From an uncultured Verrucomicrobiae bacterium (GTDB lineage Bacteria > Verrucomicrobiota > Verrucomicrobiia > Limisphaerales > JAFGQR01), in the NCBI GenBank assembly GCA_963788655.1, contig CAWBHS010000103.1, forward strand, positions 1 to 39,719: a stretch of 39,719 nt of DNA, written 5' to 3'. Position numbers and translations under genes: made by a program. Of the stretch, positions 23,171 to 39,719 are shown piece by piece (position 1 is the first letter of the stretch; each line of letters begins with the position of its first letter). The notes beneath the pieces are model-generated. The model worked only from the letters and a program-made list of their open reading frames with translations, was not told where the DNA came from and did no database searches.

Positions 23171-23247
23171 GAGCGGTCGCAGCGGGCACGGCCGCACCGA
23201 TCCCCTGCCCTGCCCGCCTCAAGCCAAGGGAGCACCGGCATTTTGTG

Positions 23248-24537
23248 TCATCCCGACGCGGCGAGGTCGAGGAACACGATGATCGAGGGATTACCAACTG
23301 GCGTGTAATGGCCGGTGAAGGCCAGTCGGCCGGTGCTGCGGTCCACGCGGAACACTGCCACATTGTCGCCCCGCTGGTTGCAGGAATAAAGAAACCGGCC
23401 CGTGGGATCGAAATTGAAGCTTCGTGGATAATTTCCCCGCGTCCATTCCTCGCCCACGAAGGTTAGCTCCCCGGTATCACCAACCGCGAAAATCCCAATG
23501 CTGTCATGCAAGCGGTTGCCGGCATACACGAACCGTCCATCACGGGAAACCATGATTTCCGAACAGAAATTGCTGCCGGCGAAACCGGGCGGCAGGCTGG
23601 TGATGGTCTGCCGCGCAGTCAACCGCCCCGTGGCAGCAAGGTAATCGAACAAGACGATGTTGGATCCCTCCTCCTGCAGGGAGTAGCACCAGTGTCCGTT
23701 GGGGTGGAAACAGAAGTGCCGCGGCCCATCCCCCGGCGGCAGCGCCACCGCGGGCGGATCATTGGGGGCCAGCACCCCGCGGCGCGCATCAAATTTCCAG
23801 ACAAATATCCGGTCCAGTCCCAAATCGACGTGCAACACGAAACGCCCCGAGGCATCGGCCCGAATCATGTGCGCGTGCGTTCGGTCGTGGCCACTGAAGG
23901 CAAAGCTTCCGGGCGGCGCATTGGTGGCCTGGCTCGGTCCCACCGGGCCAACGTCTCGCTTGATATCCGTGGCAGTTCCCAGGCGACCGTCCGGTAAAAT
24001 CGGCAGCACTGCCACCGAGCCGCCAAAGTAATTGGCCACCAGCACGAATCTTCCAGACGGATGAAGGCTCAGGTATGTGGGACCCGCCCCGCCGGAACGA
24101 ACCGTGTTGAGCCGGGTCAACTGCCCGTCAGTCCGATTAATCACGAAGGCGCTGACCGTGCCTTCCTTGCCTTCGCCCACCCGGTCCGTCTCATTGGTGG
24201 AATACAAGCGAGTGCCGGCGGTATTCAACACCAGGCAACTCGGGCTGGTTCCCAATTCAAAGACCCCGCTGGGTGTCAAAGCCCCAGTGGTGCGATCCAC
24301 CTGATACAAGTGAATGCCGCGGCCATTGCCCGGTGGCAAATCGATTTGGGTCGGCAGCACATCGTGGAGCGGAGAGCTGAACGTGCCCACGTATGCCATG
24401 AGCGGTGCCGATCCTTCGGCTGCCGGCGCGTTGATCGCTCCCGCCCAAAACGGAGCGCTCCCCCCGAACACGGCGGCGGCTTTCAAAAACGAGCGACGGG
24501 AAAGTTCCGGTGAATTTGGATGGACTGGAGATTGCAT
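23248..24537 (-). CDS. Tat-exported lactonase family beta-propeller (6-phosphogluconolactonase Pgl/YbhE-like)
   Basis: Twin-arginine signal SRRSFLK; AYVGT, VLVANYFGGSV, HAHMI, DLGLDRI, GDGPRHF, YAGNRLHDSI, PRSFNFDPTG. Confidence 0.9.
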   Translation of the reverse strand: MQSPVHPNSPELSRRSFLKAAAVFGGSAPFWAGAINAPAAEGSAPLMAYVGTFSSPLHDVLPTQIDLPPGNGRGIHLYQVDRTTGALTPSGVFELGTSPSCLVLNTAGTRLYSTNETDRVGEGKEGTVSAFVINRTDGQLTRLNTVRSGGAGPTYLSLHPSGRFVLVANYFGGSVAVLPILPDGRLGTATDIKRDVGPVGPSQATNAPPGSFAFSGHDRTHAHMIRADASGRFVLHVDLGLDRIFVWKFDARRGVLAPNDPPAVALPPGDGPRHFCFHPNGHWCYSLQEEGSNIVLFDYLAATGRLTARQTITSLPPGFAGSNFCSEIMVSRDGRFVYAGNRLHDSIGIFAVGDTGELTFVGEEWTRGNYPRSFNFDPTGRFLYSCNQRGDNVAVFRVDRSTGRLAFTGHYTPVGNPSIIVFLDLAASG

Positions 24538-24731
24538 ACTTATTCGACGGCCTCGTTAAAAGGCAGGTTGGGTTCGTGGTGCGGTTTCCAGTTCTTCAGA
24601 TGCTCGGTGAGACGGAGAATTGGTTCTCGTTTACGCTCATATCCGTTGAGGCTACGCCGTCGTGCCGGATAATGGAAAGTGCATTTTGAACGCCGCTTGA
24701 TTCCCCGACGGGTCGCGCCTACCATTCATGC

Positions 24732-25787
24732 ATGATCAAAACGCGCAGCAGTTTGGTGGGTGCCTGCATACTTCTCTTGGGCTTGGTGGCCCCCAACGTA
24801 AACGCCGCCGAGCCTTACACGGAGAATCCCGGCTCGGATGGCGATGGCCATTTCACCATCGGTCCCGAATACCAAATGGATCGTGACCTCACCGACCGCG
24901 GCAATCCCAAGGGCAAATACTTCGAATTCACCATGCGGTTGGCCGACAGCAAAATCTTCCCTGGCGACGACCCCACCCTTGAGCCGGCGAAGAAGCCCGT
25001 GCGAACCGAGCGACAGATTTATGTCTATGTCCCGGCGGCCTATCGGGACGGCACGGCGGCGCCCTTTCTGATCATCCACGATGGCCCCAGCCAACTGAAT
25101 CTCATCCGCAACGCGCTCGATAACCTCACGATTTCAACCGATCCGCATCGCCAGTTACCGCCGTTTATTGCGATCGCCGTCCAAAACGGCGGCAACGATG
25201 GCAAGAACAGCGAACGCGGGCTTGAATACGACACGATGTCCGACCGGCTCGCCCGCTTCATCAACGACGAAGTGTTGCCGGCGGTGCTGGCCAACGCGGA
25301 AATCAAAGCCGCCTATCCGAAACTGGCCCTGACCCAAAATCCTTGGGGACGCGCCGTCATCGGGTGCAGTTCCGGCGGCGCGGCGGCGCTGACGATGGGC
25401 TGGTTTCGCCCGGACTTGTTCCGCCGCGTGATCGCTTATTCCGGCACGTTTGTCGATCAGCAGGATGACGACGCCCCGGAGGAAGCGAAATACCCGCTCG
25501 GCGCCTGGGAATATCACTCGGGTATGAAACTCATCGAAACGAGTGCGAAGAAACCGCTGCGCATTTTTACGCACGTTTCTGAAAACGATCTGCGCCCCAA
25601 TGATCCGGAAGCCACGCATCACAACTGGGTGATGGCCGGTCAACGCACCGCGACCGCGCTGGAAGCCAAGGGTTTCCATCACCGGTTTGTGTTCAGCCGC
25701 GGCACGCGCCACTGTGACCGCCGGGTATTTGAGCAGACCTTGGCCGACACCCTCGTCTGGATTTGGCGCGGCTATCACGCCGAGTGA
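24732..25787 (+). CDS. Secreted alpha/beta hydrolase (Fes/enterochelin-esterase-like)
   Basis: Signal peptide; RQIYVYVPAAY, IIHDG, ERGLEYDTMSD, nucleophile elbow GCSSGGAAA, RPDLFRRV and a C-terminal His (GTRHC). Confidence 0.85.
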   Translation: MIKTRSSLVGACILLLGLVAPNVNAAEPYTENPGSDGDGHFTIGPEYQMDRDLTDRGNPKGKYFEFTMRLADSKIFPGDDPTLEPAKKPVRTERQIYVYVPAAYRDGTAAPFLIIHDGPSQLNLIRNALDNLTISTDPHRQLPPFIAIAVQNGGNDGKNSERGLEYDTMSDRLARFINDEVLPAVLANAEIKAAYPKLALTQNPWGRAVIGCSSGGAAALTMGWFRPDLFRRVIAYSGTFVDQQDDDAPEEAKYPLGAWEYHSGMKLIETSAKKPLRIFTHVSENDLRPNDPEATHHNWVMAGQRTATALEAKGFHHRFVFSRGTRHCDRRVFEQTLADTLVWIWRGYHAE

Positions 25788-26149
25788 CCAGCCGGAAGAC
25801 ATTGTTCATCGGCTGCTCCCCACGTCGAACTGATTGGCAAGTTGCAACAAAAGTGCCTGCCGGCTGCTCGGCCCCAACTGCAAAAGGTTTGGACCGCTCC
25901 ATTTCACCGCAAAGCGGCTCAACCCGTTCTCTGCTGAGCTCTTCGTGACTTGGCGGTGAATCCGGTCATCGCTCACCACCAGGACTTTCGAAGTTGATAT
26001 TCGCGTCCTGTGGATTGCGACTCGCTGGTCGATAACACGTGAAATTGCCAGCAAGCGACGACGAAGGCTCTGCCACTTCAACGCTTCAACGAAGTTGGCT
26101 CCGGCTCGGCCGTGCGGCCATCGTTGCGTTCGAACTGGTGCGTTTACGC

Positions 26150-29100
26150 TCATTCCGCTTCCGGCTTCCATTGCGGGATTCGGCCCGGAGTCCACGGCGC
26201 GCCGGCGGCATCAAGCTTCGCATTCAACGCGGCGAGGTCTTTATCCGTCAACGTACGGAATTTGGCCAAGACTGTGCCGAACGCCTCCGCGGCGTCGCGA
26301 TAGGAGTCCTTTTGGGTCTGGGTTGGCGGGGAAGTCACATGCCACTGGCTGCCCACAATGTCCTCGACGCGCGACTGAATCGACGACACCTGCGGTTCCT
26401 GCTGTTTGGCGAGGGTCTGATCGCCACGGAGTTGCGTAAGGATTTTGGTCAACTGGTCCTCGATGCTTTCCTCGGTGGCTAGCATCGCGGTGTCCACCGT
26501 GGGTGTATTCAGGATGGCTTGACGGATATATTTGAGCCGGTCTTGCGCATCTTTGGCGGCGCGGACGGTGCCTTCGACGGCACGCTGGAGCCGGGCGACC
26601 TTCAAATCGAATTTGAGCGCCGCTTCCTTGTCTTTCGCCGCAAAGGTGGCGAGTTCCAGCGGAATCACTTTGAAGGGAACCGGCTCGTTCAACCGAGTCA
26701 ATTTGCCAGCGACTTCCTTGGTCAGGGTCACCGAGTAATTCCCCGGCAGGGCGAGTGGGCCGGAGGGCAAGTCTTCCCATGGCGGCAGTTCTTTGTTTTC
26801 CTTGAGTTCAATGGGCTTGGCCGATGGATAACGCAAATCCCAGGGCACGCGATGGATGCCCTTGTCGCGCGAACCGGGCAGTTTGCGAACCACGGTGCCT
26901 TGGTCGTTACGAACCACGAGTTGGACTTCCGGCTCTGGTTCTTGATCCTCGGCGCGCAATTCCGCGATCGTTGGATAAGCGATTGGTTTACCTTCCTTGT
27001 GCGCCTTTTTTTCCGCTGCTTTGCGCTGCTCATGCGTGGTCATAAGTTTGTCCTTCAAATGATACGTGAACACGGCGCCAAAGGGTGGATTGGGCGCCGC
27101 GTAGAAACTGGCGCCTTGCGAGCCCCGACCGTCGCGATCGCCGAGCCGGCTGCGTTGGACGTAGCGCAAGGCGTCCTTCACTGGAAACACAAACGCGTCC
27201 TGCTTCAGCACTTCCCGCGTGGCGTGCCGCAGCGGCGTGTAATCATCGAGGACGTAAATGCTCCGGCCAAACGTGCCGATCACCAGATCGTTCTCTCGGC
27301 GCTGCACCTCCAGATCGCGCACGGCAACCGTAGGCAGCCCGCTGATCTTAATCCAGTTCGTCCCGCCATCGAGGGTGAAATAGGCGCCGAACTCAGTGCC
27401 GGCGAACAGCAGATTCGGTTTCACACCGTCTTCTTGGATCGAATAAACGACGTTGCGCGACGGCAAATCACCGGCAACGGAAACCCAGCTTTTGCCACGA
27501 TCGGCGCTCTTGAGCAGATACGGTTTGAAATCGCCGTTCTTGTGGTTGTCGAAGCTGGCATACACGGTGTCGGCTTGGTGACGCGATGCCGTCAGGCAAC
27601 TAACGTACGTCATGTCCGGCACGCCTGGGAATACCGCGATCTTGCGCCAATGCTGGCCCCCATCCTCGGTCACCTGCACCAATCCGTCGTCGGTGCCCAC
27701 GTAGATGAAGCCCTCGACGAGGGGCGATTCGGTCAGCGAAACGGAGTTACCAAAGAAGGACGTGGATTCCCCCTTGGCCACGGCTTCCGGCAGTTGAATC
27801 CGGCCCAGGATCGGCAACGTGTTGCGATTGATGCCGCGCGTGAGATCGCCACTGATGGCCTTCCAACTGTTGCCGCGGTCGTCCGAACGAAAGAGCCGGT
27901 TGGCTCCGAAATAAAGCCGTTCGTAGTTAAACGGACTAAGGATCAGGGGCGAATCCCAGTTCCATTTCAACGGTGGTTCGCCGGGCGCAGTGGTCGGTTT
28001 GATATCGACCATTTCACCGCTGCGGCGGTCATAACGGACGAGGCCGCCGTATTGCCACATACAATAAATGAGGTTCGGATCATCCGGATCCACGACCGAC
28101 TCGTAGCCGTCGCCGCCCACGGTCACGAACCAATCCGCTGATGTGATGCCCGCGCGGTCGGTCGTCTGCGCGGGGCCGCCTTGCGAGTTGTTGTCCTGGG
28201 TGCCGCCATAAACGTAATAGAACGGCTTCGAAGTATCCGCGCTGACGCGGTAGAACTGCGTGATGGGAAGATTCGGTTTGAAACCCCAGTTTTGTCCCCG
28301 GTCAAAGGTTTCGTAAACACCGCCGTCGCAGCCCACGAGGAGATGTTCATTGTTCGTGGGATCGATCCACAGCGCGTGATCATCGACGTGTCGGTTCTTG
28401 CGCGGAACCCGTTCGAAATTCTTCCCGCCGTCTTCGGTAACGCGCATGAACGTGTCCAAAGCGTACACCCGGTCCACCTTGATGGGATCAGAAATGATTT
28501 CATTGAAATACTGGGGACTGGTCGTCATGTAATCGCTGCGTTTTTCCCAGGTTTCCCCACGGTCGAGTGAACGGAAAAATCCGCCTTTGTCCTCGGCAGC
28601 TTCGATGATCGCATAGATCACATCGGGGTTGACTGGCGAAATCGCCAGTCCAATTCGACCTTTGTCCACGTCCGGAATGCCGTTGGTGAGCTGGCGCCAG
28701 TGCTTGCCCGCGTCGGTGGATTTGTAGATGGCCGACTCCGGCCCGCCGTCGATCAACGTCCACACGTGCCGCCGGCGCTGATACGCGGAAGCATAAAGCA
28801 CGTTGGGATCGCGCGGATCGAGATGCACCTCGTTGGCGCCGGTGTTCTCGCTGATGGGCAGAACACACTTCCAGGTTTTGCCGCCGTCGATGGTCTTGTA
28901 CACGCCGCGGTCCCCGCCGGCGCGCCAGAGCGGGCCTTGCGCAGCCACATACACGATCTCCCCATTCTTCGGATGGACGGCAATCATGCCGATGTGCTCG
29001 GAATTCGTCAGCCCCACATTGGTCCAATGCGTTCCGTCATCCAGGGAACGATACACTCCGTCGCCGAAGCCGACGCTGCGTTGACTGTTGTTTTCGCCGG

Positions 29101-29482
29101 TGCCCACCCAAACGTCGTTCGGGTTTTGCGGATTCAGGGCTACGCACCCAATCGAGTACGAACCTTCCTGGTCGAACACTGGAATCCACGTGATGCCGGC
29201 ATCCTTCGTCTTCCAAACGCCCCCGGAGCATACGGCCACGAAATAGTGCGAATGATCGCGCGCGTCCACGGCGAAATCGCCCACCCGTCCAGACATTAGC
29301 GCGGGCCCGATCGACCGAACCTTCAGGCCGTCAAAGAAACCGGCCGGAATGCTCTCAGCCTCGGTCGTGGTCTTAATGGTTCGATTGGTTTGGTCGTCCG
29401 GGATTGGTTCAGCGGCCAGGGCCGTTTGGTTCAACCCGACGAGCCACCCGATTCCAGTGAGCAGCAGGACAATTGTTTTCAC
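26150..29482 (-). CDS. Large secreted BNR/Asp-box (VPS10/sortilin-like) beta-propeller protein, putative glycosyl hydrolase
   Basis: RSIGPALMSGRVGD, many S/T-x-D-x-G-x-x-W repeats, WVGTGE, HVDDHALWIDP, GGTQDN, GGDGY and a C-terminal coiled region. Likely start GTG 29482 (VKTIVLLL signal peptide). Confidence 0.88.
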   Translation of the reverse strand: MKTIVLLLTGIGWLVGLNQTALAAEPIPDDQTNRTIKTTTEAESIPAGFFDGLKVRSIGPALMSGRVGDFAVDARDHSHYFVAVCSGGVWKTKDAGITWIPVFDQEGSYSIGCVALNPQNPNDVWVGTGENNSQRSVGFGDGVYRSLDDGTHWTNVGLTNSEHIGMIAVHPKNGEIVYVAAQGPLWRAGGDRGVYKTIDGGKTWKCVLPISENTGANEVHLDPRDPNVLYASAYQRRRHVWTLIDGGPESAIYKSTDAGKHWRQLTNGIPDVDKGRIGLAISPVNPDVIYAIIEAAEDKGGFFRSLDRGETWEKRSDYMTTSPQYFNEIISDPIKVDRVYALDTFMRVTEDGGKNFERVPRKNRHVDDHALWIDPTNNEHLLVGCDGGVYETFDRGQNWGFKPNLPITQFYRVSADTSKPFYYVYGGTQDNNSQGGPAQTTDRAGITSADWFVTVGGDGYESVVDPDDPNLIYCMWQYGGLVRYDRRSGEMVDIKPTTAPGEPPLKWNWDSPLILSPFNYERLYFGANRLFRSDDRGNSWKAISGDLTRGINRNTLPILGRIQLPEAVAKGESTSFFGNSVSLTESPLVEGFIYVGTDDGLVQVTEDGGQHWRKIAVFPGVPDMTYVSCLTASRHQADTVYASFDNHKNGDFKPYLLKSADRGKSWVSVAGDLPSRNVVYSIQEDGVKPNLLFAGTEFGAYFTLDGGTNWIKISGLPTVAVRDLEVQRRENDLVIGTFGRSIYVLDDYTPLRHATREVLKQDAFVFPVKDALRYVQRSRLGDRDGRGSQGASFYAAPNPPFGAVFTYHLKDKLMTTHEQRKAAEKKAHKEGKPIAYPTIAELRAEDQEPEPEVQLVVRNDQGTVVRKLPGSRDKGIHRVPWDLRYPSAKPIELKENKELPPWEDLPSGPLALPGNYSVTLTKEVAGKLTRLNEPVPFKVIPLELATFAAKDKEAALKFDLKVARLQRAVEGTVRAAKDAQDRLKYIRQAILNTPTVDTAMLATEESIEDQLTKILTQLRGDQTLAKQQEPQVSSIQSRVEDIVGSQWHVTSPPTQTQKDSYRDAAEAFGTVLAKFRTLTDKDLAALNAKLDAAGAPWTPGRIPQWKPEAE

Positions 29483-29692
29483 ACTCGGTTTGTTGTTCGG
29501 ATTTGGTTCGCGACGCACGGCAGGAGGATAGGATTGTGGCGCCGCGTTATTCAAGACTTGCCGGTAATGAATAAACGGCTCGGCTGACCTCAGCACAAGC
29601 GGATCCTGTGGCACTCAGATCTCCCCACGGTAACCGAACTACGCATTTGGATCATGAATCCAATAGAAGTGTCGTTGGACGCGACAGCGCCG

Positions 29693-29767
29693 TGGACTGC
29701 GGCAGTCCTCTGCCGCTTTAGAAACGCTCGAATATTGTCAAAAGCGCCAGAGGGCTGGCGCAGTCCA
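29693..29767. repeat. REP-like inverted pair
   Basis: TGGACTGCGGCAGTCCTCTGCCGCTTT (29693-29719) and AAAGCGCCAGAGGGCTGGCGCAGTCCA (29741-29767) are imperfect reverse complements, each with an internal hairpin. The pair lies just 3' of the PL6 gene. Confidence 0.75.
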
Positions 29768-29791
29768 AAACCTTGCGGTAATTCGATCGGT

Positions 29792-32164
29792 TCAGGGAAA
29801 GGGGTGAGAATGTTCCGAGCCTGCCCTAACTGAAGCCTGTGTGGTGTGGCTGCAATTCGACGGAATTCGCAGACTGAAACTCAGTGGTGAGGCGGCCATA
29901 ACCGTTAGGATGCCTGGACCATAGCTTGCGGCCAGGATTTGAGCTTGCACGTCAGCCATTTCTCGCGCGATTGGACCGTCGATGAATTCCAACCCCGTAT
30001 TCGTGTCGGCAACATGCGGCAATGCCAGCAAAGCAAGGCTGATAATTTCCTGCGTGCCCGGCGCAAAGGTGCTCCCGGGTGGCAGCGCCAATGCCACGCC
30101 CACCTTGCCGGCGGAAAGCGCGTTGGTATTGACCAACAAAGCTGCTGCGGCGGAGGCAGCAGTCGGCTTGGCTCCGACGAATCTCACCATGGCCGGATCA
30201 AACGAGAGCGTGAAGCCGGCGGCGTTTTCGTTGCCGCTCGCCTTCAGCACCACTGCCACCGATTTGGTCGTGCCCGCCGCCATCATTGTGTCCCTCACCC
30301 GCAGGAACCGGCCTGTGCCATCTCCGCGGCTGGCCAATGCCGACACGGACTTACCGGGATTGATTGCGGAGGCGATGGGCGCGGTGGGGCCGCCGACGGG
30401 TTTCACCGGATCCAGACCGCTCGCGTAACGTCCGGCCTGAACCCAATCGGCGATGCTCAGCGCGCCGTTGCCCAGCGTAGCGGACGGAGCGCAATCCGCG
30501 CGTTGAAACTCGCCTCCCTCCACAGGTTGGTCCAACGCGGCCGCAAACCGGCCCGCTTGCACCCAATCCGTGATGGTGACAGTGCCGTTCGTGCTGCCAT
30601 GGGGACGGGGTTGCACATCGGCTTCATAACTCACGGTGTCCGATGGCCGCATCCAGAGTGGTCCTACGTCAGCCGGCGTCAACGGCGGATACACGGCGAT
30701 GGCCGAAGACGCTTGATCGCAACCAACATCTTTGGTCACGGGCCGGGTGGTTCCATCAATGTCTTCTGTCACAAAATCGTAATTGCCTTGCGCCGCGCCG
30801 AGAACCGGGCTGTTGGTAGCGGGACGCCACAAACCATCCGCCGCCGGCAATAACTGCGGATCGGTTTGCCAGATTCCGCTGTTGGTCGCAATGCCCAGCG
30901 AAGTGCCATACATGATATTGCCTTCCCAGGTCAGGTTCACCGGCGTAATCCGTTGATCAACCAGTTTGCCGCTGCTGGTAAGCACGATGTTGTTGGCGAT
31001 GACGCAATCCTCCGGCGGCAACGTGGTTACCTGCGGGGTGCCGCTGTAGGTGCCGGGCAGGCCGATGACCAGGCTGTTTTGGCAATTGACGAACGTGTTG
31101 AACGCCACGACGGCGCGTTTGACCTGGAAATAGCCGTTGAGCGGGCTGTTCTCCAGGCCCTGCATGATGGTCAACGCCGACCGACCGCTGGTGCCGGTCA
31201 GTTCCCCAAAATAGTTGTTGAACACTTGGTGGTCCTCGCCGATGACCCGCACGCCACCGGTGAGCGGTTTGAGGTGCCCAAAGAAATAGTTGGCGGCCAC
31301 CACGCACCGGTTCCCGTGCCGCAAGGTCAACGTCCCCTCGCACTCGACGAACGTGTTGTGCCGATAAACATTCTCACACGACTTATTGGAGATGATTTCA
31401 ATCTCGCCGTTGCAACGTTCGAAATAGTTGCGCTCAACCAGGGTGCCGGAACGGTTCATCGACACCTCGCTGGTGCCGACGCGGATGGTTTCCCCGCCAT
31501 TGACGCCCAAGTCGGATCGCGGGCCGAAATAATTGTGATCGAGGCGATGGCCATTCGGCTGATCCGGTTGGCTGGACACCCACACGACCAGCGTGGTACC
31601 GGCGTTGGTTTTGCCCGCGAAATAGCAATTGTCCACCCGGTTGCTGACGCCATAAAGCGAAACCCACTTGGTGTCGATAAGCCCGCTCGGCGGATTGTAG
31701 TCAATGATGGCGCATTCGGTCAGCCGGCAATGGTTGGCTGGTGCGTCATCGGCATCGCGGAATTCGACCACCGCGTCCGAGGTGACATAACCGTTCGTGA
31801 ATTGCAGACCGGAAACCACCAGGAAGCTGCCGGCCAGCCGCAGCCGTGACGTGCCGCTGAGCGTGACTTGGCCGGGGACTTGGGCTTGCAAGGTGATGGG
31901 CTGGGTGGCGGTACCGTTGCCTTTGAATGTGATGTCGGCATTTTGCCAGACGCCGGTGGCCATGATCAGCGTGTCTCCCGGTTGGACAGTCTGCATCGCC
32001 GCCGTGATTTCCGACACGCTCGCAACCAATTGGCTGTCGGCCAGCACGGGAGTTGTCCCGCTCAACAGCATCAACCCAACGCCCAACCCTCGCGTCGGCG
32101 AAAGCAATCGGCCACACCAATTTTGGCGGCATCCGCGGCTCATCTTGATTTGTGCCGGTGGCAC
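29792..32164 (-). CDS. Polysaccharide lyase family 6 (alginate lyase/chondroitinase B beta-helix) with C-terminal dockerin-like and cohesin domains
   Basis: QPGDTLIMATGVW, GTATQPITLQAQVPGQV, NRVDNCYFAGK, NGGETIRVGTS, GEIEIISNKSCEN, LTLRHGN and GGVRVIGEDHQVFNNYF. Then a duplicated DWVQAGR(F/Y) repeat (~30630-30410) and cohesin-like GNENAAGFTLSFDP (~30310-29900). Confidence 0.88.
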   Translation of the reverse strand: MPPAQIKMSRGCRQNWCGRLLSPTRGLGVGLMLLSGTTPVLADSQLVASVSEITAAMQTVQPGDTLIMATGVWQNADITFKGNGTATQPITLQAQVPGQVTLSGTSRLRLAGSFLVVSGLQFTNGYVTSDAVVEFRDADDAPANHCRLTECAIIDYNPPSGLIDTKWVSLYGVSNRVDNCYFAGKTNAGTTLVVWVSSQPDQPNGHRLDHNYFGPRSDLGVNGGETIRVGTSEVSMNRSGTLVERNYFERCNGEIEIISNKSCENVYRHNTFVECEGTLTLRHGNRCVVAANYFFGHLKPLTGGVRVIGEDHQVFNNYFGELTGTSGRSALTIMQGLENSPLNGYFQVKRAVVAFNTFVNCQNSLVIGLPGTYSGTPQVTTLPPEDCVIANNIVLTSSGKLVDQRITPVNLTWEGNIMYGTSLGIATNSGIWQTDPQLLPAADGLWRPATNSPVLGAAQGNYDFVTEDIDGTTRPVTKDVGCDQASSAIAVYPPLTPADVGPLWMRPSDTVSYEADVQPRPHGSTNGTVTITDWVQAGRFAAALDQPVEGGEFQRADCAPSATLGNGALSIADWVQAGRYASGLDPVKPVGGPTAPIASAINPGKSVSALASRGDGTGRFLRVRDTMMAAGTTKSVAVVLKASGNENAAGFTLSFDPAMVRFVGAKPTAASAAAALLVNTNALSAGKVGVALALPPGSTFAPGTQEIISLALLALPHVADTNTGLEFIDGPIAREMADVQAQILAASYGPGILTVMAASPLSFSLRIPSNCSHTTQASVRAGSEHSHPFP

Positions 32165-32288
32165 GATTTCATTTCCATCATCTTAACCTTAAACATCGTC
32201 GAAAGCGGCTCCCGACTACAATTTGCCGGCATTTTGCACTGGTTTCTTGTGCTCGGACAGGCTTGTATCATGGCCAAACCATAACGTG

Positions 32289-32966
32289 ATGAAATTACTT
32301 TTGGTGGAAGATTCACCGCGGTTGCAGCGTTCGCTCGCCGAAGGGTTGCGCCACGCCGGCTACGTCCTGGATATCACAGGCGATGGCGCGGAAGGACTGT
32401 GGTTGGCGAAGTCGAACGGTTACGACGTGATCATTCTCGACATCATGTTGCCGGGCTTGGACGGGTTGGCGGTGCTCGAACGCTTGCGCGCCCAGGGAAA
32501 GGAAACCCACGTATTGATGCTCACAGCGCGGGATGCGGTCGAGGACCGCGTGCGCGGATTGCAAATGGGGGCGGACGACTATCTGGTCAAGCCGTTTGCT
32601 TTCGAGGAACTGCTGGCGCGCATCCAGGTCTTGTGCCGTCGCGGGTATGGTAACAAGAATCCGGTCATCCGCGCCGGTGACCTGGAATTGGATCAGGCCA
32701 GCCGGGCGGTGAAACGGAGCGGCACGGCGATTGAATTGACTGCCCGCGAATATGCCCTCCTCGAATATCTGGCGCTGCGCCGCGGACAAGTCGTGTCCCG
32801 CACCGAAATTGAGACCCACATTTACGATGACCAGGCCGATCCCATGAGCAATGTGGTGGACCGCACCGTGTGCGTGCTGCGCCGAAAACTCGGTCGGCCC
32901 GGCTCGGCGCCGTTGATCCATACCCGGCGTGGGCAAGGCTATTTGCTCGAACCCGATCCGGCATGA
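32289..32966 (+). CDS. OmpR/PhoB-family response regulator
   Basis: MKLLLVED, YDVIILDIMLPGLDG, LMLTARD, GADDYLVKPFAFEELLARI, LTAREYALLEYL and IHTRRGQGY. Start ATG 32289. Confidence 0.95.
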   Translation: MKLLLVEDSPRLQRSLAEGLRHAGYVLDITGDGAEGLWLAKSNGYDVIILDIMLPGLDGLAVLERLRAQGKETHVLMLTARDAVEDRVRGLQMGADDYLVKPFAFEELLARIQVLCRRGYGNKNPVIRAGDLELDQASRAVKRSGTAIELTAREYALLEYLALRRGQVVSRTEIETHIYDDQADPMSNVVDRTVCVLRRKLGRPGSAPLIHTRRGQGYLLEPDPA

Positions 32967-34492
32967 AATCTATTCGCCACCAATTAACGCTCAGTCTGCT
33001 GCTGGGTTTCGCCCTGTTGCTCGGGGCCGGCGGCGTGGCGGTCTATTGCTCAGCCCGGGCCGGTTTGTATCGTGAGTTTGACAACGGACTCCGCCTTAAA
33101 GCTCTAGCCATCGCCGCCCTGACCAGACGTACGCGCGAAGGGGTCAGGTTTGAATTTCGTGATCGGCTCCAGCCAACCAACAATTCCCAGCTTGCCATCG
33201 ATTACTACCAATTGTATGCCCGCCACGGAGATTCGCTGGAACGTGCTCCCTTGCTGGGTCAAACGAACCTGCCACCGCGGTTCGGTTCCTTGACGGAGCC
33301 AACGTTCTTCAATCTCGAGTTGCCAGGCAAAGTGCCCGGACGCGCAGTGGGTTTGGAATTCGTCGTCAAGCAACGCAACCGGAAAGCTGTGCGAGAGGAC
33401 GAGGACGAAGAAGAACCCGCAGCAAAACCTGCCACCGCTAGCAAGCCGGCCAAACAACCCTCGCCAGCGTTGCCCCCGCTGCCGGTCGGACTCGTGGTGG
33501 CAGCAGAACGAACGGCGCTGGACCATACCTTGAGGGCGCTGGCCAATCTGTTGGGACTCGCCGGCGGGGCCAGCCTGCTGGCCACGATCGGGCTTATTGC
33601 CGTGGCGCTCCGCCGGGGACTCCGGCCACTGGACCAGCTTGCCGGGCGGGCCGAGCGCATCGACGCCGCTTCGTTGCAAACCCGGTTTCCCGCCGACGGC
33701 CTGCCTGCCGAATTGACGCCCATTGCCCAGCGGCTCAACGAACTGTTGTCCCGCTTGCAAGCCGCGTTCGAACGGGAACGCCGCTTCAGTGCCGACCTCG
33801 CCCATGAACTGCGCACGCCGCTGGCGGAGTTGCGGTCCCTGGCGGAGGTCAAGCTCCGGTGCGGCAACCCGGCCGACCACGAGTCGTTTCGGGAGACGCT
33901 GGACATCGCCATCCAGATGCAATCGCTGGTAACGCGCTTGCTGGCCTTGGCGCGTTCCGAACAGCGCGACCTGCCCCTCCAAGCAGAACCGGTGGAGATC
34001 AACCGGGTGCTGGAATCCGTGTGGGAAAAGCTCCGGCCTCGGGCGGATCGCCACCAGCTTGCCGTCAAACTGGCGGTGCCACCGCCCAGCCGGATTGTTA
34101 CCGATGCGGCTTTGTTCCGCGGCATCCTGCAAAACCTGCTGGCCAATGCGGTCGATTACACGCCGCCGCAAGGAGCCTTGGCGGTTCAATTTGTGGGCAA
34201 CAACAACCATTTTGAGCTAACCATCCGAAACACGACCGCCAAATTGGAGGCGGCCGACCTGCCGCACCTCTTCGACCGCTTCTGGCGCAAGGACAGTGCC
34301 CGCACCGATTCGGCGCACAGCGGCTTGGGGCTGGCCTTGGCCCGCTCCTTTGCCGAGTTGCTCGGCATGCAACTGTCGGCGCGGTTGGAAAGCAACGGGC
34401 AATTTGTCCTCACCCTGTCCGGCCCGCTGAAGGCCGGTCCCGAACCACAACGAGGAAGCCCAGAGGCAAAAGTGAGGGAATTGATACGGTAA
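32963..34492 (+). CDS. Membrane sensor histidine kinase (HAMP-HisKA-HATPase; CusS/QseC-like)
   Basis: ATGA overlap with the regulator; two TM helices; H-box FSADLAHELRTPL, N-box NLLANAVDY, HLFDRFWRKD and G2 box HSGLGLALA. Confidence 0.93.
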   Translation: MKSIRHQLTLSLLLGFALLLGAGGVAVYCSARAGLYREFDNGLRLKALAIAALTRRTREGVRFEFRDRLQPTNNSQLAIDYYQLYARHGDSLERAPLLGQTNLPPRFGSLTEPTFFNLELPGKVPGRAVGLEFVVKQRNRKAVREDEDEEEPAAKPATASKPAKQPSPALPPLPVGLVVAAERTALDHTLRALANLLGLAGGASLLATIGLIAVALRRGLRPLDQLAGRAERIDAASLQTRFPADGLPAELTPIAQRLNELLSRLQAAFERERRFSADLAHELRTPLAELRSLAEVKLRCGNPADHESFRETLDIAIQMQSLVTRLLALARSEQRDLPLQAEPVEINRVLESVWEKLRPRADRHQLAVKLAVPPPSRIVTDAALFRGILQNLLANAVDYTPPQGALAVQFVGNNNHFELTIRNTTAKLEAADLPHLFDRFWRKDSARTDSAHSGLGLALARSFAELLGMQLSARLESNGQFVLTLSGPLKAGPEPQRGSPEAKVRELIR

Positions 34493-34553: not shown

Positions 34554-35588
34554 ATGCGAAATAGAGAAGTCACCGCCGCGGAGGTTCCGGCAAGAAACGT
34601 CACCGCGAGCCGTGAGCGGGATGACGTCGCGCTTTTGTTTGACGGACGCTTTCAAACCGGGGTCGGCGTGTATGACGGTCTTTCCGCGTTGCTCGCGGAG
34701 AAATGGAAATTTGCCTTTGCCTGGGTGAGCAGCTTCTGCTGCTCCGCCGCCGCGGGACTTCCCGATGCGGGCATCATTGGTCCGGAAGACATTCTCAACG
34801 TGGTGCGGTGCGTGCGCCGTTGCGTTGCACTGCCCATCGTGGTGGATCTCGACTCCGGTTACGGTGACGCCATCAAGGTATTTCACGTGGTCGAAGCCAT
34901 GACCCGGGCGGGCGCGGCGGCTTTGTGCATCGAGGACAATCCCATTTCCAAACGTTGTAGCCTGTACGATGGTTATGATCGCGCGCTGGTGCCTATCGAG
35001 GAACACATCACTCGCTTGCGCGCGGCTCGGGCGGGCGTAGCGCAGGCTCATTGCACCTGCCACATTATCGCGCGGACCGAAGCGCTCGTCGCGGGGAAGG
35101 GTCTCGCCGAAGCGTTGAAGCGCGCGACGGCTTATGCCGATGCCGGAGCCGACGCCGTGTTTGTTCAATCGCTGGATACGACCGGCAATGAAGTGCTCAC
35201 GTTTGGACGCAAATGGCAACGGCGAACGCCGATCTTCATCGCGCCAACGCGGCTGCCTCACGTTACGAAGAAGGAGTTCGCCGACGCCGGAATTTCGCAC
35301 ACGATTTTTGCGAATCAGGGACTTCGCGCCGCGCACGCCGCCATGGATCGCACGTTCGGCATCTTGGCGCAGTCGCAATCCGCCACCGGGGTTGACTCGG
35401 AGATTTCCAGTATTGCCACGGTGGCGAATTTGGTCGGAGCGCAGCAGGTGGTTGAGTTGGAAGCCCAGTTGGCCCACGGAAATGGAAAGCCGGCGCCGGC
35501 ACCAACGCCACCGGGGGGAGGTTTGGTGATTCCGACGGGTGGTAAGCTGGAAACGCATGCTGCCGACCGCAGCGTACCCAACGACTAA
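34554..35588 (+). CDS. Isocitrate lyase/PEP mutase superfamily enzyme, most like phosphoenolpyruvate mutase, with a non-canonical active-site loop
   Basis: YDGLSALL, WVSSF...GLPD, IVVDLDSGYG, CIEDNPISKRCSLYDG, IIARTEALVAGKGLAEALKRATAYADAGADAVFVQS, PIFIAPT and GISHTIFANQGLRAA align with the PepM/phosphonopyruvate hydrolase branch. Confidence 0.8.
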   Translation: MRNREVTAAEVPARNVTASRERDDVALLFDGRFQTGVGVYDGLSALLAEKWKFAFAWVSSFCCSAAAGLPDAGIIGPEDILNVVRCVRRCVALPIVVDLDSGYGDAIKVFHVVEAMTRAGAAALCIEDNPISKRCSLYDGYDRALVPIEEHITRLRAARAGVAQAHCTCHIIARTEALVAGKGLAEALKRATAYADAGADAVFVQSLDTTGNEVLTFGRKWQRRTPIFIAPTRLPHVTKKEFADAGISHTIFANQGLRAAHAAMDRTFGILAQSQSATGVDSEISSIATVANLVGAQQVVELEAQLAHGNGKPAPAPTPPGGGLVIPTGGKLETHAADRSVPND

Positions 35589-35633: not shown

Positions 35634-36824
35634 ATGCTGGCTGAACGAATGAAGGGTTTTTCCGGTTCGCGGACTTCCGGGATGCGCAACCGGGCGCGGA
35701 AACTTCGCGCCGAAGGCATTCACGTGGTGAACTTCGCCGCGGGTGAACTGGATCAGGACACCAGTCCCGGAATCAAGGCCGCGGTGCGGCAGGCGGTGGA
35801 TGCAGGCCATACGCAATACACCGACACGCTGGGCCTTCGCGAATTGCGCGAACGAGTTGCGGCGAAGATCATCCAGAAGACCGGCGTCACCTACACCGCG
35901 GAGGAAGTCGGCTTCACCGCCGGTGCCAAGCAAGCGTTGTTCAACGCGAATTTCGTACTGTTCCAACCGGGGGATGAAGTCATCATTCCGGCTCCCTATT
36001 GGGTGACGATGCCGGAGCAGGCGCGGTTGGCCGGCGCGACACCGGTTGCGCTGCCGACCGGACCCCATGGTTTTCAAATCGACGTCGGCGAACTAGCGCA
36101 AGCCATCACACCACGCACGCGGGGACTCATTCTGAACACGCCGCACAATCCGACCGGCGTGGTTTATTCGTCGGAACTGCTGAAGCAAATTGCCCAATTG
36201 GTGTTGCAACACGACCTGGTCTGCATTTTCGACGAGTGCTACGACCAATTGGTTTATGCCCCCGCCGTGCATCACAACCTCGTGCAGGTGGTTCCCGAGA
36301 TGAAAGCGCGAACCGTGCTCATCGGTTCGTTGTCGAAATCCTATTGCATGGCGGGTTGGCGGGCCGGTTATTTCGCTGCCCCGCAACCCATTGTGAAAGC
36401 GATTGCCAATCTGCAAAGTCATATCGCGTCGAATCCCTCCAACCTCGTTCAATATGCGGCTTTGAATGCCTTCGAGCCGGAGAACGACGCCTTTGTGGCC
36501 GGCAACCGCAAGCAATTGACCGCCCAGCGGGCGACGGCGCTGGAACTGATCCAAAAGATTCCCGGCCTGCCTTGTGTCGTTCCCCAAGGCGCCTTCTATC
36601 TTTTTCCCGACGTGAGCTCACTTTTTGGCAAATCATTCCAGGGCCAGCGCGTGGACAATGGGGATCGACTGGCCGAACTGCTGCTGGAACACGCTCACAT
36701 CGCCATCGTTCCCGGCTCGGCCTTTGGCGCGCCCGATCACCTGCGCATCTCCTACGCGATCCCGACCGAAGAAATCGTGACCGGGTTGACTCGCCTGGGG
36801 CAGTTTATGCAGTCGTTGTCATGA
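35634..36824 (+). CDS. PLP-dependent class I/II aminotransferase (aspartate aminotransferase-like)
   Basis: RBS GGGAG; NFAAGELD, YTDTLGLRELR, TAGAKQAL, ILNTPHNPTG, DECY, PLP-lysine motif SLSKSYCMAGWRAGY, PQGAFYLF and VPGSAFG...LRISYA. Confidence 0.95.
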   Translation: MLAERMKGFSGSRTSGMRNRARKLRAEGIHVVNFAAGELDQDTSPGIKAAVRQAVDAGHTQYTDTLGLRELRERVAAKIIQKTGVTYTAEEVGFTAGAKQALFNANFVLFQPGDEVIIPAPYWVTMPEQARLAGATPVALPTGPHGFQIDVGELAQAITPRTRGLILNTPHNPTGVVYSSELLKQIAQLVLQHDLVCIFDECYDQLVYAPAVHHNLVQVVPEMKARTVLIGSLSKSYCMAGWRAGYFAAPQPIVKAIANLQSHIASNPSNLVQYAALNAFEPENDAFVAGNRKQLTAQRATALELIQKIPGLPCVVPQGAFYLFPDVSSLFGKSFQGQRVDNGDRLAELLLEHAHIAIVPGSAFGAPDHLRISYAIPTEEIVTGLTRLGQFMQSLS

Positions 36825-38098
36825 ACGTTCCCGCCCCGAATTCAAATCCCTCCATGACGCAATCCGGCATGGTGTTGTTCCTCGGCATGGTGCGCCGTGG
36901 AGAATTTGAGAGCCTCGAAAAACGCGGCTTGCCGTTGGGTATTTTGGTGGACACGAACAGCAAGGCGCGCCTCGGCGATGTCTCGCGCTTCGTGGTCGTC
37001 GAGCGGTTCGATTTCTCGCGGCCGTTACCGGAACTGATCGAGAAGGTGCGCGCCATTCGGCAGCGGTTCGGCATCGTGTGCCTCTACAACGTCATCGAAT
37101 TCTATGTGGCCCAGACGGCCGCCGTCGCCGCCGCGCTGGGGCTACCCGGAATTGCTCCCCAATCCGCGAGATTGTGCCTCGACAAAAATCTCATGCGCCA
37201 ACGGTTTCACGAGCGGCTGGGGCCGGGCGTGGGGGCGCGTTGTCATGCGATTCATTCCGAAGCCGAATTGCTGAAGTTTGCTGACGAGCTGGGCTTCCCG
37301 TGTTTTTTGCAACCGGCGAATGTCTCCGCCAGCATGTGGGCCACGCGCAACACAAACCGCGAAATGCTGCTGGCCAATTACCGCAAAATCGTCAGTGAGG
37401 TGCCGAAATACTACGAGCGCCTGGGGAAGAAAGGCACGGCGCTGAGCGTGGTCCTGGCGGAATACCTGGAAGGGATAAACATTTCCATCGACTGTCTGAT
37501 GGACAAGAAGGGCCAGGTCTTCACGACGCCGGCGGTGGAGGTGCTGACCGGACAGGACGTTGGCCTGGACGACTTTCATCACTTTGCGCGTCTGCTTCCG
37601 GCGCGGCTCAGCGCGGAGGAGGAAGCGGAGCTGAACCGGTTGGCCATTACCGGGGTGCAGGCGCTCGACATGACGACCAGCGCTTCGCACGTCGAATTCA
37701 TCGGTTCCCGCCTCGGCGAAATCGCGGCGCGCCCCGGCGGCAACCGTCCGCGCATACTCGAAATGGCCTACGGCATGGATATGCTGTACGCCTATTACCA
37801 GATTCTTCGGGGTGAAACCCCTGATCTGCGCCCGAATCGCAACTTCGCGGCGGCCGTTGTCACGCCGTTTGCGCCGCGCGACGGTCCGCTACGCTCGATT
37901 CGTCACTTGGATCGCATTCCCCAATTGCCGGGCTATCTTTATCACGAAGTTCGCGCGCAACCCGGCCAGCCGGTCGGCCTCTCCCGGAGCGGATACCGCG
38001 CCGGATTGTATGTCGAACTGTTGTCCGACGATGCCGATGAAGTCCGCCACAGCGTGGACCAAATCGCGTCCTGGACGGATTTGTATGAACTGAACTGA
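36821..38098 (+). CDS. ATP-grasp ligase (L-amino acid ligase-like)
   Basis: Start ATG 36821 overlaps the aminotransferase stop (ATGA). Motifs AAALGLPG, CLDKNLMRQRF, LGFPCFLQP, VLAEYLEG and SHVEF...GEIAARPGG. Confidence 0.82.
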   Translation: MNVPAPNSNPSMTQSGMVLFLGMVRRGEFESLEKRGLPLGILVDTNSKARLGDVSRFVVVERFDFSRPLPELIEKVRAIRQRFGIVCLYNVIEFYVAQTAAVAAALGLPGIAPQSARLCLDKNLMRQRFHERLGPGVGARCHAIHSEAELLKFADELGFPCFLQPANVSASMWATRNTNREMLLANYRKIVSEVPKYYERLGKKGTALSVVLAEYLEGINISIDCLMDKKGQVFTTPAVEVLTGQDVGLDDFHHFARLLPARLSAEEEAELNRLAITGVQALDMTTSASHVEFIGSRLGEIAARPGGNRPRILEMAYGMDMLYAYYQILRGETPDLRPNRNFAAAVVTPFAPRDGPLRSIRHLDRIPQLPGYLYHEVRAQPGQPVGLSRSGYRAGLYVELLSDDADEVRHSVDQIASWTDLYELN

Positions 38099-39340
38099 AT
38101 GACCGGCCGGCCCGCGTTGCTCCCTTCGATTTCTCCGACCGCACGCCGGCTGTTGACGGCGCGGTTCTGGCGGAGCATCGCGCAAGGCACACTGGTGGTG
38201 GATCTGGCGCTTTACCTCAACGCCCTGCACTGGTCGGGAACGGCCATTGGCGCCGTGTTGGGCGTGGCGGGAATCGCGGGCGCCGCCTTCGGCGTGGCGA
38301 TTGGACTGGTGAGTGATCGTTTCGGACGCAAGCCGTTTTTGCTGGCCTACGAAGCACTTTGTTGTCTCTGCGGCCTCGTGGCATTTGCCACCAGCCAGAC
38401 GGCGCTGCTCGCGGCGGCCATCATGCTGGCGGGTTTTGGCCGGGGCGCAAATGGCGCGGCGGGGCCGGTGTCTCCGGCGGAAGATGCCTGGCTGGCCGAA
38501 AATGTCGAACCGCTGGCGCGCGGCTTTGTATTCAGTCTGAAATCCGCCATCGGGTTTACGGGCATGGCGATCGGCGCGTTGGCGGCGATGTTGCCCGCCA
38601 TGTGGACCACCCTCGGCCCGGCGGGAAGTTACCGCCCGATCTTTCTCATCGTGATTCTGGGCAATGCCGTCAACATATACATACTCATGGGCACCCCCGA
38701 GCAGAAACACGCGCCGGCGCGGATCGTTGATCCTGCGCCACCCAAATCGCCGGAAGAGACTCGCGCACGCGAGAATCAATTTCTGCTCCGCCTGGTGGCC
38801 CTCAATGCCTTCAACGGATTGGCTGTGGGACTCACGACGCCATTGATGTCTTACTGGTTTGCGGAGCGCTTCCACATCGGTCCCCTGCTGATCGCGCCCG
38901 TCATGGCGGCGACCTTCCTCGCCGTCGCGGTGGCCGCATTGTTCAGCGGCGGGTTGACGCGGCGCGTCGGCCTGGTCAACGTCATGGTGTGGGGACGCGG
39001 GGGTGGATTGGCGCTGCTGGTGCTTTTTCCGCTGATGCCGGTCTATGCGCTGGCGGCGTTGCTGCACATAATGCGTTCCGCGTTAAATCTCGGAACTATT
39101 GGCGCGCGGCAGGCGTTGGTGGTCAGCGCCGTGCATGACCATCGACGCGGTTTGGCCTCCAGCCTCAACACCTTCTCGGGAAGAATTCCGCAGTCCCTCG
39201 GACCGGTTGTTGCCGGCAGTCTTATCGGCGCGGGACAGTTGGTGATGCCATTCTACCTGGCCGCGGTTTTTCAAGGAGCGTACTTGTTTCTCTTTGGACG
39301 ACTTTTTCGTCAGATCGAACACAGCATGCAACAGAAGTGA
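38099..39340 (+). CDS. Major facilitator superfamily transporter
   Basis: The start directly abuts the previous stop. About 12 TM helices; motif A GLVSDRFGRK and its second-half echo GGLTRRVG. Confidence 0.92.
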   Translation: MTGRPALLPSISPTARRLLTARFWRSIAQGTLVVDLALYLNALHWSGTAIGAVLGVAGIAGAAFGVAIGLVSDRFGRKPFLLAYEALCCLCGLVAFATSQTALLAAAIMLAGFGRGANGAAGPVSPAEDAWLAENVEPLARGFVFSLKSAIGFTGMAIGALAAMLPAMWTTLGPAGSYRPIFLIVILGNAVNIYILMGTPEQKHAPARIVDPAPPKSPEETRARENQFLLRLVALNAFNGLAVGLTTPLMSYWFAERFHIGPLLIAPVMAATFLAVAVAALFSGGLTRRVGLVNVMVWGRGGGLALLVLFPLMPVYALAALLHIMRSALNLGTIGARQALVVSAVHDHRRGLASSLNTFSGRIPQSLGPVVAGSLIGAGQLVMPFYLAAVFQGAYLFLFGRLFRQIEHSMQQK

Positions 39341-39472
39341 TGTGCGCTCCCATTACCTCGGTCTCCCGAAACGCCGGACTTGCAATCTTTACGTTTCGAT
39401 TATTGCGGAAATATCTCGGCGAAACTTGACCTTGAACATCACCCCATCGTCACCGCTAACCTCTGAACCGAC

Positions 39473-39719
39473 TTGACTATTAACGCTCAAACCGAACCTA
39501 CTCAACTCAGCCCTCCCGGCAAATATTCAAGCGACTCGATTGCGTGCCGTCATGGCGTCGTGGTGTCCGTCTCGCGACCCGCGTCGGAGGTGGGAGTCTC
39601 CATTCTCAGGCGCGGCGGCAACGCGGTGGATGCCGCGGTCGCCACCGCGTTCGCCCTGGCCGTCACCTATCCCGCCGCGGGCAACATCGGCGGCGGCGGA
39701 TTCAGCAAAGACCAACGGT
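39473..39719 (+). CDS. ggt: Gamma-glutamyltransferase N-terminus, running off the window end
   Basis: Not in the ORF track because it has no stop. The frame from TTG 39473 reads ...HGVVVSVSRPASEVGVSILRRGGNAVDAAVATAFALAVTYPAAGNIGGGGF, the GGT N-terminal signature. No signal peptide. Confidence 0.85.
   Translation, partial: MTINAQTEPTQLSPPGKYSSDSIACRHGVVVSVSRPASEVGVSILRRGGNAVDAAVATAFALAVTYPAAGNIGGGGFSKDQR

Follow-up and report, generated by a model that had tools for sequence, protein, structure and literature searches.

A conserved PepM-like enzyme without the EDK motif may be an overlooked phosphoenolpyruvate mutase of Verrucomicrobiota

Can an enzyme of the phosphoenolpyruvate (PEP) mutase family that lacks the EDK-x5-NS motif still make phosphonopyruvate? 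This question is raised by a 39,719-nucleotide stretch of DNA from an uncultured Verrucomicrobiae bacterium (contig CAWBHS010000103.1; hereafter the window), in which positions 34554..35588 of the forward strand encode a PepM-like protein of 344 amino acids. The protein belongs to the isocitrate lyase (ICL)/PEP mutase superfamily (PF13714) and to a non-EDK subfamily that carries Asn129, Cys135 and Gln205 in the active site. As far as sequence comparison can tell, it is probably a functional PEP mutase of an uncharacterized subfamily that the EDKx5NS filter misses, and it would feed the synthesis of a phosphonoalanine peptide. In the passages available to us, phosphonate surveys and the mining for phosphonate antibiotics and herbicides admit only EDKx5NS enzymes, and three studies treat the motif as a hard criterion for PEP mutase (PMC8942020, PMC12723261, PMC6697681).

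The original prediction had read a hybrid active site from the gating loop and a later strand of this protein. Translation of 34932-35168 (+), inside the open reading frame 34554..35588, gave EDNPISKRCSLYDG...AVFVQ and confirmed the residues that had been read. By translation and alignment, the gating-loop motif EDNPISKRCSLYDG (34932..34973, + strand; EDK-x5-NS in canonical PepM) stands where the PEP mutase of Mytilus edulis has EDKLFPKTNSLHDG. The codons concerned are AAT at 34938 for Asn129, TGT at 34956-34958 for Cys135 and CAA at 35166-35168 (+ strand) for Gln205, which aligns with His190 of Mytilus PepM and with Glu188 of Escherichia coli PrpB. A HMMER alignment to the Mytilus enzyme 1m1b ('ciednpiskrcslydgy' over 'cledklfpktnslhdgr', and 'avfvqs' over 'ailmhs') reproduced exactly the manual alignment behind the original prediction, with Glu114, Lys120, Ser123, Leu124 and Arg159 kept, and Lys116 changed to Asn, Asn122 to Cys and His190 to Gln. 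Query residues Trp57, Ser59, Asp71, Asp98 and Asp100 align with Mytilus Trp44, Ser46, Asp58, Asp85 and Asp87, and Glu127, Asp128, Lys133, Ser136 and Arg174 align with Glu114, Asp115, Lys120, Ser123 and Arg159. All of the residues that bind Mg2+ and the oxalyl group are present, as is the Arg159 equivalent. Besides EDN for EDK, Cys for Asn122 and Gln for His190, the protein differs from PEP mutase in having Ser-Phe for Gly47-Leu48. Trp57 (Tyr43 in the lyases) and Ser136-Leu137 (Gly-His in the lyases) are mutase-like.

Among solved structures, PEP mutases and a phosphonopyruvate hydrolase come nearest to the protein in sequence and fold, ahead of the lyases, which supports a mutase. PF13714 (PEP_mutase) matched query residues 39-268 with 159.6 bits (cut-off 31.5). 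The best sequence matches in the Protein Data Bank (PDB) were PEP mutase 5unc (E 1.3e-46), phosphonopyruvate hydrolase 2dua (7.4e-46) and PEP mutase 1m1b (2.3e-39). An AlphaFold2 model built from a 48-sequence alignment had a mean predicted local distance difference test score (pLDDT) of 89.2, and of 81 over residues 131-140, which make up most of the gating loop. In a Foldseek search with this model, template modelling (TM) scores normalized to the target were 0.93 for 5unc (root-mean-square deviation, rmsd, 1.5 A), 0.93 for 1pym, 0.92 for 2dua and 0.86-0.88 for methylisocitrate lyases. The query thus shares Pfam family and fold with PEP mutase (EC 5.4.2.9; Mytilus edulis 1m1b/1pym and Streptomyces platensis 5unc; TM 0.93, rmsd 1.5-1.8 A), at about 30-34% identity in the structural alignments. 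The models for neighbouring activities all scored below their cut-offs: phosphonopyruvate hydrolase TIGR02321 168.3 against 374.4, methylisocitrate lyase TIGR02317 145.3 against 354.4, carboxy-PEP mutase TIGR02319 73.9 against 420.05, and the ICL models below 50 bits.

If the unusual residues were sequence errors, homologues should carry the canonical Asn and His, as the original prediction had pointed out. We scored 8000 candidates, found 784 proteins at E <= 1e-10 and examined the best 120 of these 784, query included. Asn, Cys and Gln occupied the three columns in 120/120 of these closest proteins (the query and 119 others), so sequencing error or chance as the source of the triplet was ruled out. 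Identity of the non-self members to the query was 67-85% by BLASTP and down to 60% in the MAFFT alignment, and 101 of the best 120 were identical across all 19 active-site columns read. Where a source was named, the close homologues came mostly from Verrucomicrobiota (Pedosphaera, Limisphaerales), and three were labelled Paceibacterota, Planctomycetota or Binatia. The distribution is patchy. A close copy was present in 6/400 other genomes of the same order and absent from 400 other genomes sampled evenly across the phylum, in which the best matches were canonical EDK...NS...H enzymes at 31-38% identity. A scan of genome contigs with the single query protein gave 4 loci; an alignment as query would reach further. 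Among sequencing runs, no RNA data set was listed as containing this sequence, and one soil DNA run shared a small part of its words. In the query's own genome (86% complete) no other candidate for a PEP mutase was found, the three other PF13714 genes (of 4) having short loops and no gating loop, and no phosphonopyruvate decarboxylase (Ppd) was found in it (best score 28.6 bits).

We then asked how the three positions vary in the wider family. A HMMER search of 1.84 billion representatives returned 276 proteins at E <= 1e-30, and residues were typed in the 135 domain-complete sequences among the best 150 of these 276, a sample biased towards the query. At positions 116/122/190 in Mytilus numbering, K/N/H occurred 62 times, N/C/H 13, N/N/H 12, N/S/Q 7, N/C/Q 6 and K/N/Q 4, other types making up the remainder. 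For the pair 122/190, the counts were N/H 82, C/H 14, S/Q 12, C/Q 9, N/Q 7 and S/H 5. The co-variation of Cys and Gln that the original prediction had proposed to test was not seen: each of the two residues also occurs with other partners (C/H 14, C/Q 9, S/Q 12, N/Q 7). A test of co-variation on independent pairs was underpowered, with too few informative pairs. Inside the query's own clade, position 122 alternates naturally between Cys and Ser. Such an exchange is easier to reconcile with a hydrogen-bond donor than with a catalytic thiol, and argues against a thiol of the lyase type. The PDB titles show that C123S PrpB has been used as a trapped mutant; this mutant is reportedly inactive.

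The position of the query among its relatives was examined in a careful tree (IQ-TREE, LG+C20+F+G4 with posterior mean site frequencies, PMSF; 67 rows, PrpB as outgroup). The query fell in a clade of 19 rows with support 100/100, separate from and outside the clade of canonical EDK enzymes, in which sequences of the phosphonopyruvate hydrolase (PPH)-like K/T/H type are nested. Its sister, at 96/95, is a clade of N/N/Q and S/N/Q sequences that holds L088, L113, L101 and L110, and the same union appeared in quick trees with 86 (161 rows, LG+G4) and 93. The first quick tree had placed N/C/H forms as the first branch, beside the lyase outgroup. That placement was not upheld, the base being unresolved in the mixture-model trees, and we therefore make no statement on the ancestral form.

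Gene contexts indicate what these relatives may do. Metagenomes were scanned with an alignment of divergent Gln-type members as the query; 205 stretches matched, 111 relatives were confirmed and 80 loci were kept, and the neighbouring genes were scanned against Pfam and NCBIfam, with TIGR03297 (cut-off 312.5) as the model for Ppd. Across the 80 loci, Trp44, Asp58, Asp85, Glu114, Asp115, Ser123, Arg159 and Asn235 are kept; at other sites a conservative change is rare, such as Asp87 to Glu in 2 of the 80. Two N/N/Q members of the sister clade, L088 and L113, adjoin a Ppd gene (TIGR03297 scores 333.3 and 329.1). L101 (N/N/Q) and L098 (N/D/Q) adjoin decarboxylase homologues that score 302.8 and 304.4, slightly below the cut-off and far above the sulfopyruvate decarboxylase models, and L110 (S/N/Q) is fused to a TPP_enzyme_N domain. 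L123, which combines the canonical motif with Gln (K/N/Q), is followed by Ppd (344.3) and then by Fe-ADH. Taken together, the N/N/Q relatives and L123 make Gln190 compatible with phosphonate synthesis.

For Cys122, the N/C/H gene of L091 is followed by HMGL/HCS_D2 (homocitrate-synthase-like), aconitase and isocitrate dehydrogenase genes, a set that matches the FR-900098-type route as given in passages of PMC8942020. L095 (N/C/H) is fused to NTP_transf_3. Among seven representatives of the N/C/H or S/C/H type, four are fused to NTP_transf_3 (P0141, P0144, P0156, P0157), P0145 is fused to TPP_enzyme_N and two are unfused. The FR-900098-like set and the nucleotidyltransferase fusions make Cys122, too, compatible with phosphonate synthesis. 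Each substitution therefore occurs, alone or paired, in enzymes with hallmark phosphonate partners. In the passages available to us, Rice et al. dropped 22 fused PF13714 proteins through the motif filter as presumed non-Ppm (PMC6697681). The proposal that the gene represents a PepM subfamily discarded by the usual filter gains from the conserved triplet, the sister clade beside Ppd, the contexts of Cys122 relatives and the reliance of surveys on EDKx5NS.

The genes that follow the PepM-like gene, all on the forward strand and closely packed or overlapping, point in the same direction. A class I/II aminotransferase of the aspartate aminotransferase (AAT) type (35634..36824; PF00155, 244.4 bits) begins 45 nt 3' of it and is a candidate transaminase for a 2-oxo acid, phosphonopyruvate. 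Its best NCBIfam match is the aspartate transaminase PRK06107 (337.6 bits against a cut-off of 617), and all aspartate transaminase models scored below cut-off. The start of an ATP-grasp ligase gene (36821..38098) overlaps the aminotransferase stop by 4 nt. This protein is a distant ligase of the L-amino-acid-ligase type (ATP-grasp_4, 35 bits, cut-off 27; LAL_C2, 23 bits, below cut-off), whose sole PDB sequence relatives are BacD (E 2e-7) and BL00235. A major facilitator superfamily (MFS) transporter gene (38099..39340; MFS_1, 105.7 bits) starts at the first base past the ligase stop, and the N-terminal part of a gamma-glutamyltranspeptidase (GGT) gene follows (39473..39719; tblastn and PF01019), cut by the contig end. 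Its start is uncertain, a putative TTG at 39473 after an in-frame stop. The GGT assignment rests on 68-75% identity to the GGTs of relatives in tblastn over 39485-39703 and on a PF01019 match of 50.7 bits over 39599-39703.

This arrangement is shared by relatives. We collected 39 loci, 37 of them unique, with a PepM-like gene of at least 60% identity; counts over them are not independent, because some loci may stem from the same populations. An aminotransferase lies directly downstream in 28 of the 33 unique loci with at least 700 bp of downstream sequence. The ATP-grasp gene is present in 17 of the 37, the MFS gene lies in the same place, and GGT is present in 14, including 12/12 with at least 4.5 kb downstream. 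The order also varies, L072 and L078 having PepM-like, aminotransferase and GGT genes, and L055/L056 having PepM-like, ATP-grasp, MFS and GGT genes.

The gene types of the operon can be likened to those of the phosphonoalamide cluster pnaABCD of Streptomyces sp. NRRL B-2790. In the passages available (PMC11867202), a minimal cluster comprises PepM, an AAT-family transaminase as coupling enzyme, ATP-grasp ligases and transporters nearby; PnaA, of the AAT family, pulls the unfavourable mutase reaction forward, and the ATP-grasp ligases build the peptide. For phosphonoalanine, Cui et al. report a 31P signal at about 16.5 ppm. The window shares with pnaABCD a PepM-type enzyme, an AAT-family aminotransferase, ATP-grasp ligation and a transporter. 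It differs in having one ATP-grasp ligase and not two, a PepM without the canonical motif and a constant GGT, and in its host, which belongs to the Verrucomicrobiota and not to the Actinomycetota. By this analogy, the first four genes would follow phosphonoalamide pathway logic. As with PEP mutases, the query gene is followed by a candidate coupling enzyme, of a type proven in the phosphonoalamide pathway according to those passages. A mutase coupled to transamination in this way is the most economical reading, and ordinary mutase chemistry is the likeliest outcome. The five-gene operon probably makes and exports a small phosphonate peptide.

In such a pathway, Mg2+ and the oxalyl part of PEP would be bound by Trp57, Ser59, Asp71, Asp98, Asp100, Glu127 and Lys133. 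Arg174 would hold the migrating phosphoryl group, aided by Gln205 where the Mytilus enzyme has His190, by Cys135 where it has Asn122, and perhaps by Arg134. The adjacent aspartate-type aminotransferase would draw off phosphonopyruvate, the unfavourable product, by converting it to L-phosphonoalanine, which the ATP-grasp enzyme would join to another amino acid. The MFS protein would export the product, and GGT, a lipoprotein in relatives, would process it outside the cell and might unmask a gamma-glutamyl-protected compound. The residues, their conservation, the tree position, the gene order and the contexts of relatives were observed directly; what the enzyme acts on, what it makes and how the ligase and GGT contribute are inferred.

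The same set of genes could also be read in the opposite direction, as a catabolic operon. An outer GGT would split a gamma-glutamyl compound and so free an amino acid, which would enter through the MFS protein; the aminotransferase would convert this amino acid to phosphonopyruvate (or an analogue, for instance sulfopyruvate), and the PepM-like enzyme would hydrolyse the latter to pyruvate and an inorganic anion. The phosphonopyruvate hydrolase PalA (2dua) is close to PEP mutase in its sequence and fold similarity to the query (E 7.4e-46 against 1.3e-46; TM 0.92), is likewise a relative of PepM with another residue in place of Asn122, and forms with the AAT-family enzyme PalB a degradative pair (passages of PMC8942020). 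A two-component system upstream and the lipoprotein signal on the GGTs of relatives, which suits external substrates, would be in keeping with catabolism. However, PalA keeps EDK and His190 and has Thr at 122, where the query has EDN, Cys and Gln; the hydrolase model TIGR02321 stays far from its cut-off, and K/T/H sequences of the PPH-like kind fall within the canonical clade, at a distance from the query. A catabolic operon also has no place for the ATP-grasp ligase found in 17 related loci. The gene order follows the biosynthetic sequence, the partner of the sister clade, Ppd, acts in biosynthesis, and divergent clade members lie in contexts of the non-ribosomal peptide synthetase (NRPS) or radical S-adenosylmethionine (SAM) type. 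We consider a catabolic role decidedly unlikely.

Several observations weigh against a mutase. Asn122 and His190, which together with Arg159 we take from the Mytilus literature to be the phosphoryl-group binders, are replaced by Cys135 and Gln205, and the loop reads EDNPISKRCS where EDK-x5-NS is expected. The PEP mutase equivalog model TIGR02320 gave 209.9 against a cut-off of 319.55, a cut-off that L123, with its canonical motif beside Ppd, also missed (300.4). In a MAFFT alignment, Asn129, Cys135 and Gln205 stand opposite Gln117, Cys123 and Glu188 of E. coli PrpB, so all three deviant positions are lyase-like. No aminotransferase was found in 5 of the 33 evaluable loci (L003, L055, L082, L087, L114), and we know of no counterpart of the ever-present GGT in known phosphonate pathways. 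A canonical PepM could sit elsewhere in the genomes of relatives, which are known from metagenome contigs. No Ppd was seen in the examined contexts of the query's own clade (19/26 rows; L080, L083, L084, L086 and the close loci), which hold aminotransferase, HMGL-like, NRPS, radical-SAM and aconitase genes and genes without a Pfam match; support from Ppd therefore comes from the sister clade only. The Asn/Cys/Gln triple itself was not seen adjoining an unambiguous phosphonate enzyme.

In a rival reading, the Cys/Ser122-Gln190 clade would have changed its chemistry. The enzyme would still bind the Mg-oxalyl substrate, but in place of phosphonopyruvate it would make another 2-oxo acid (a pyruvate with a different beta substituent, or a product of enolate chemistry), which would then be transaminated, ligated, exported and processed by GGT. 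Its three active-site positions are unlike those of every characterized PEP mutase and mimic the lyase pattern EDQ/KRC/Glu188, and the clade, besides its full support, is long-branched. The lack of Ppd in its examined contexts and the GGT of the operon also speak for this reading. Nevertheless, the lyase hallmarks are gone. The query resembles PrpB and the isocitrate lyases in the Lys-Arg-Cys of its gating loop, in an amide or acid at the Glu188 position and in an Asn opposite the Gln of EDQ, but has KRCSL, Trp and Gln where they have K(K/R)CGH, Tyr43 and Glu188. The match to their fold is weaker (TM 0.86-0.88), TIGR02317 falls well short, and Ser replaces the Cys in close clade members. The lyase version of different chemistry, which the original prediction had offered beside a mutase, thus lost ground. 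Sister and other non-EDK clades lie in classic phosphonate contexts, and the aminotransferase and HMGL-like partners are known phosphonopyruvate-coupling types (passages of PMC8942020). A three-enzyme operon of this kind also needs a substrate from primary metabolism, and no obvious candidate other than PEP yields a useful 2-oxo acid. We regard a changed chemistry as unlikely. It is quite unlikely, in our view, that the clade has given up phosphonopyruvate and catalyses an undescribed reaction on a Mg-bound 2-oxo acid or enolpyruvyl substrate that leads to a new beta-substituted alanine. This alanine would undergo ligation, perhaps to a prodrug masked by a gamma-glutamyl group, and after export the GGT lipoprotein would remove the mask; if so, this would be a new antimetabolite pathway in uncultured Verrucomicrobiota.

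A functional non-EDK mutase would have wider consequences. Clades without EDKx5NS sit by phosphonopyruvate decarboxylase, in FR-900098-like sets or fused to nucleotidyltransferases. If they are active, inventories undercount phosphonate producers, including a clade common in soil and freshwater Verrucomicrobiota metagenomes, and the view that phosphoryl transfer requires Asn122 and His190 would have to be rethought. Those forms that keep the lyase-like Lys-Arg-Cys loop may then show an origin of the mutase from lyases. The five genes of the operon further suggest that a new small peptide is made through a step that depends on GGT. Searches of the open full-text literature, outside which most subscription journals lie, found neither non-EDK PEP mutases nor this operon described, so that earlier work is possible.

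Some observations concern the GGT genes. The GGTs of related operons carry a lipobox-like signal at the N-terminus in L045, L046, L052 and L060, and a hydrophobic N-terminal segment without Cys in L093. The GGT of the window (39341-39719) is without this lipoprotein signal peptide and has an in-frame TGA at about 39464-39466; its homology begins only near 39485, and its last few residues diverge from the relatives. Possible explanations are truncation, a cytoplasmic location of the protein, a pseudogene or poor assembly at the contig end. On another contig of the same genome, a second GGT gene (C86:7280-8813) matches the family in two frames (model positions 3-64 and 44-512), which suggests a frameshift or an assembly error.

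Other observations concern non-EDK relatives. In L047 (9050-9978), a 123-amino-acid gene of no known family and a gene with a RibD_C domain are inserted between the PepM-like gene and the aminotransferase. P0124 (N/S/Q, in the query's clade) has an N-terminal PqqD-like domain. Such domains are the peptide-recognition element of pathways to ribosomally synthesized and post-translationally modified peptides, which hints that some relatives act beside peptide-modifying machinery. In L086 (6980-13591; L074 has the same set), an N/S/Q PepM-like gene is followed by two conserved genes (321 and 364 amino acids) without a Pfam or NCBIfam match and, further on, by large and small aconitase subunits and a methyltransferase; this uncharacterized set may be a chain-extension pathway. 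In L084 (835-13640), the neighbours of an N/C/Q PepM-like gene are two radical-SAM genes and genes for an M20 peptidase, an HMGL-like protein and an AMP-binding enzyme; this set looks biosynthetic and is not the same as the window's operon. L100, L102, P0143 and P0159 have an N/N/H PepM-like domain fused to a C-terminal AMP-binding (adenylating) enzyme, with total lengths of 620-900 amino acids; the passages of the phosphonate literature available to us contain no description of this fusion type.

Upstream of the PepM-like gene, on the same strand, the window encodes an OmpR-type response regulator (32223..32966) and a HAMP/HisKA histidine kinase (32870..34492), both assigned by Pfam. The pair may regulate the operon. 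Of the 37 unique related loci, 6 also have a response regulator (at least 55% identity) upstream, in those cases on the opposite strand. Further upstream (21152-32164) lie genes for a sulfatase, a 7-bladed lactonase, an esterase, a large BNR/sortilin-repeat protein and a chondroitinase-B-like protein, which form a polysaccharide-degradation neighbourhood typical of Verrucomicrobiota, seemingly unrelated to the operon.

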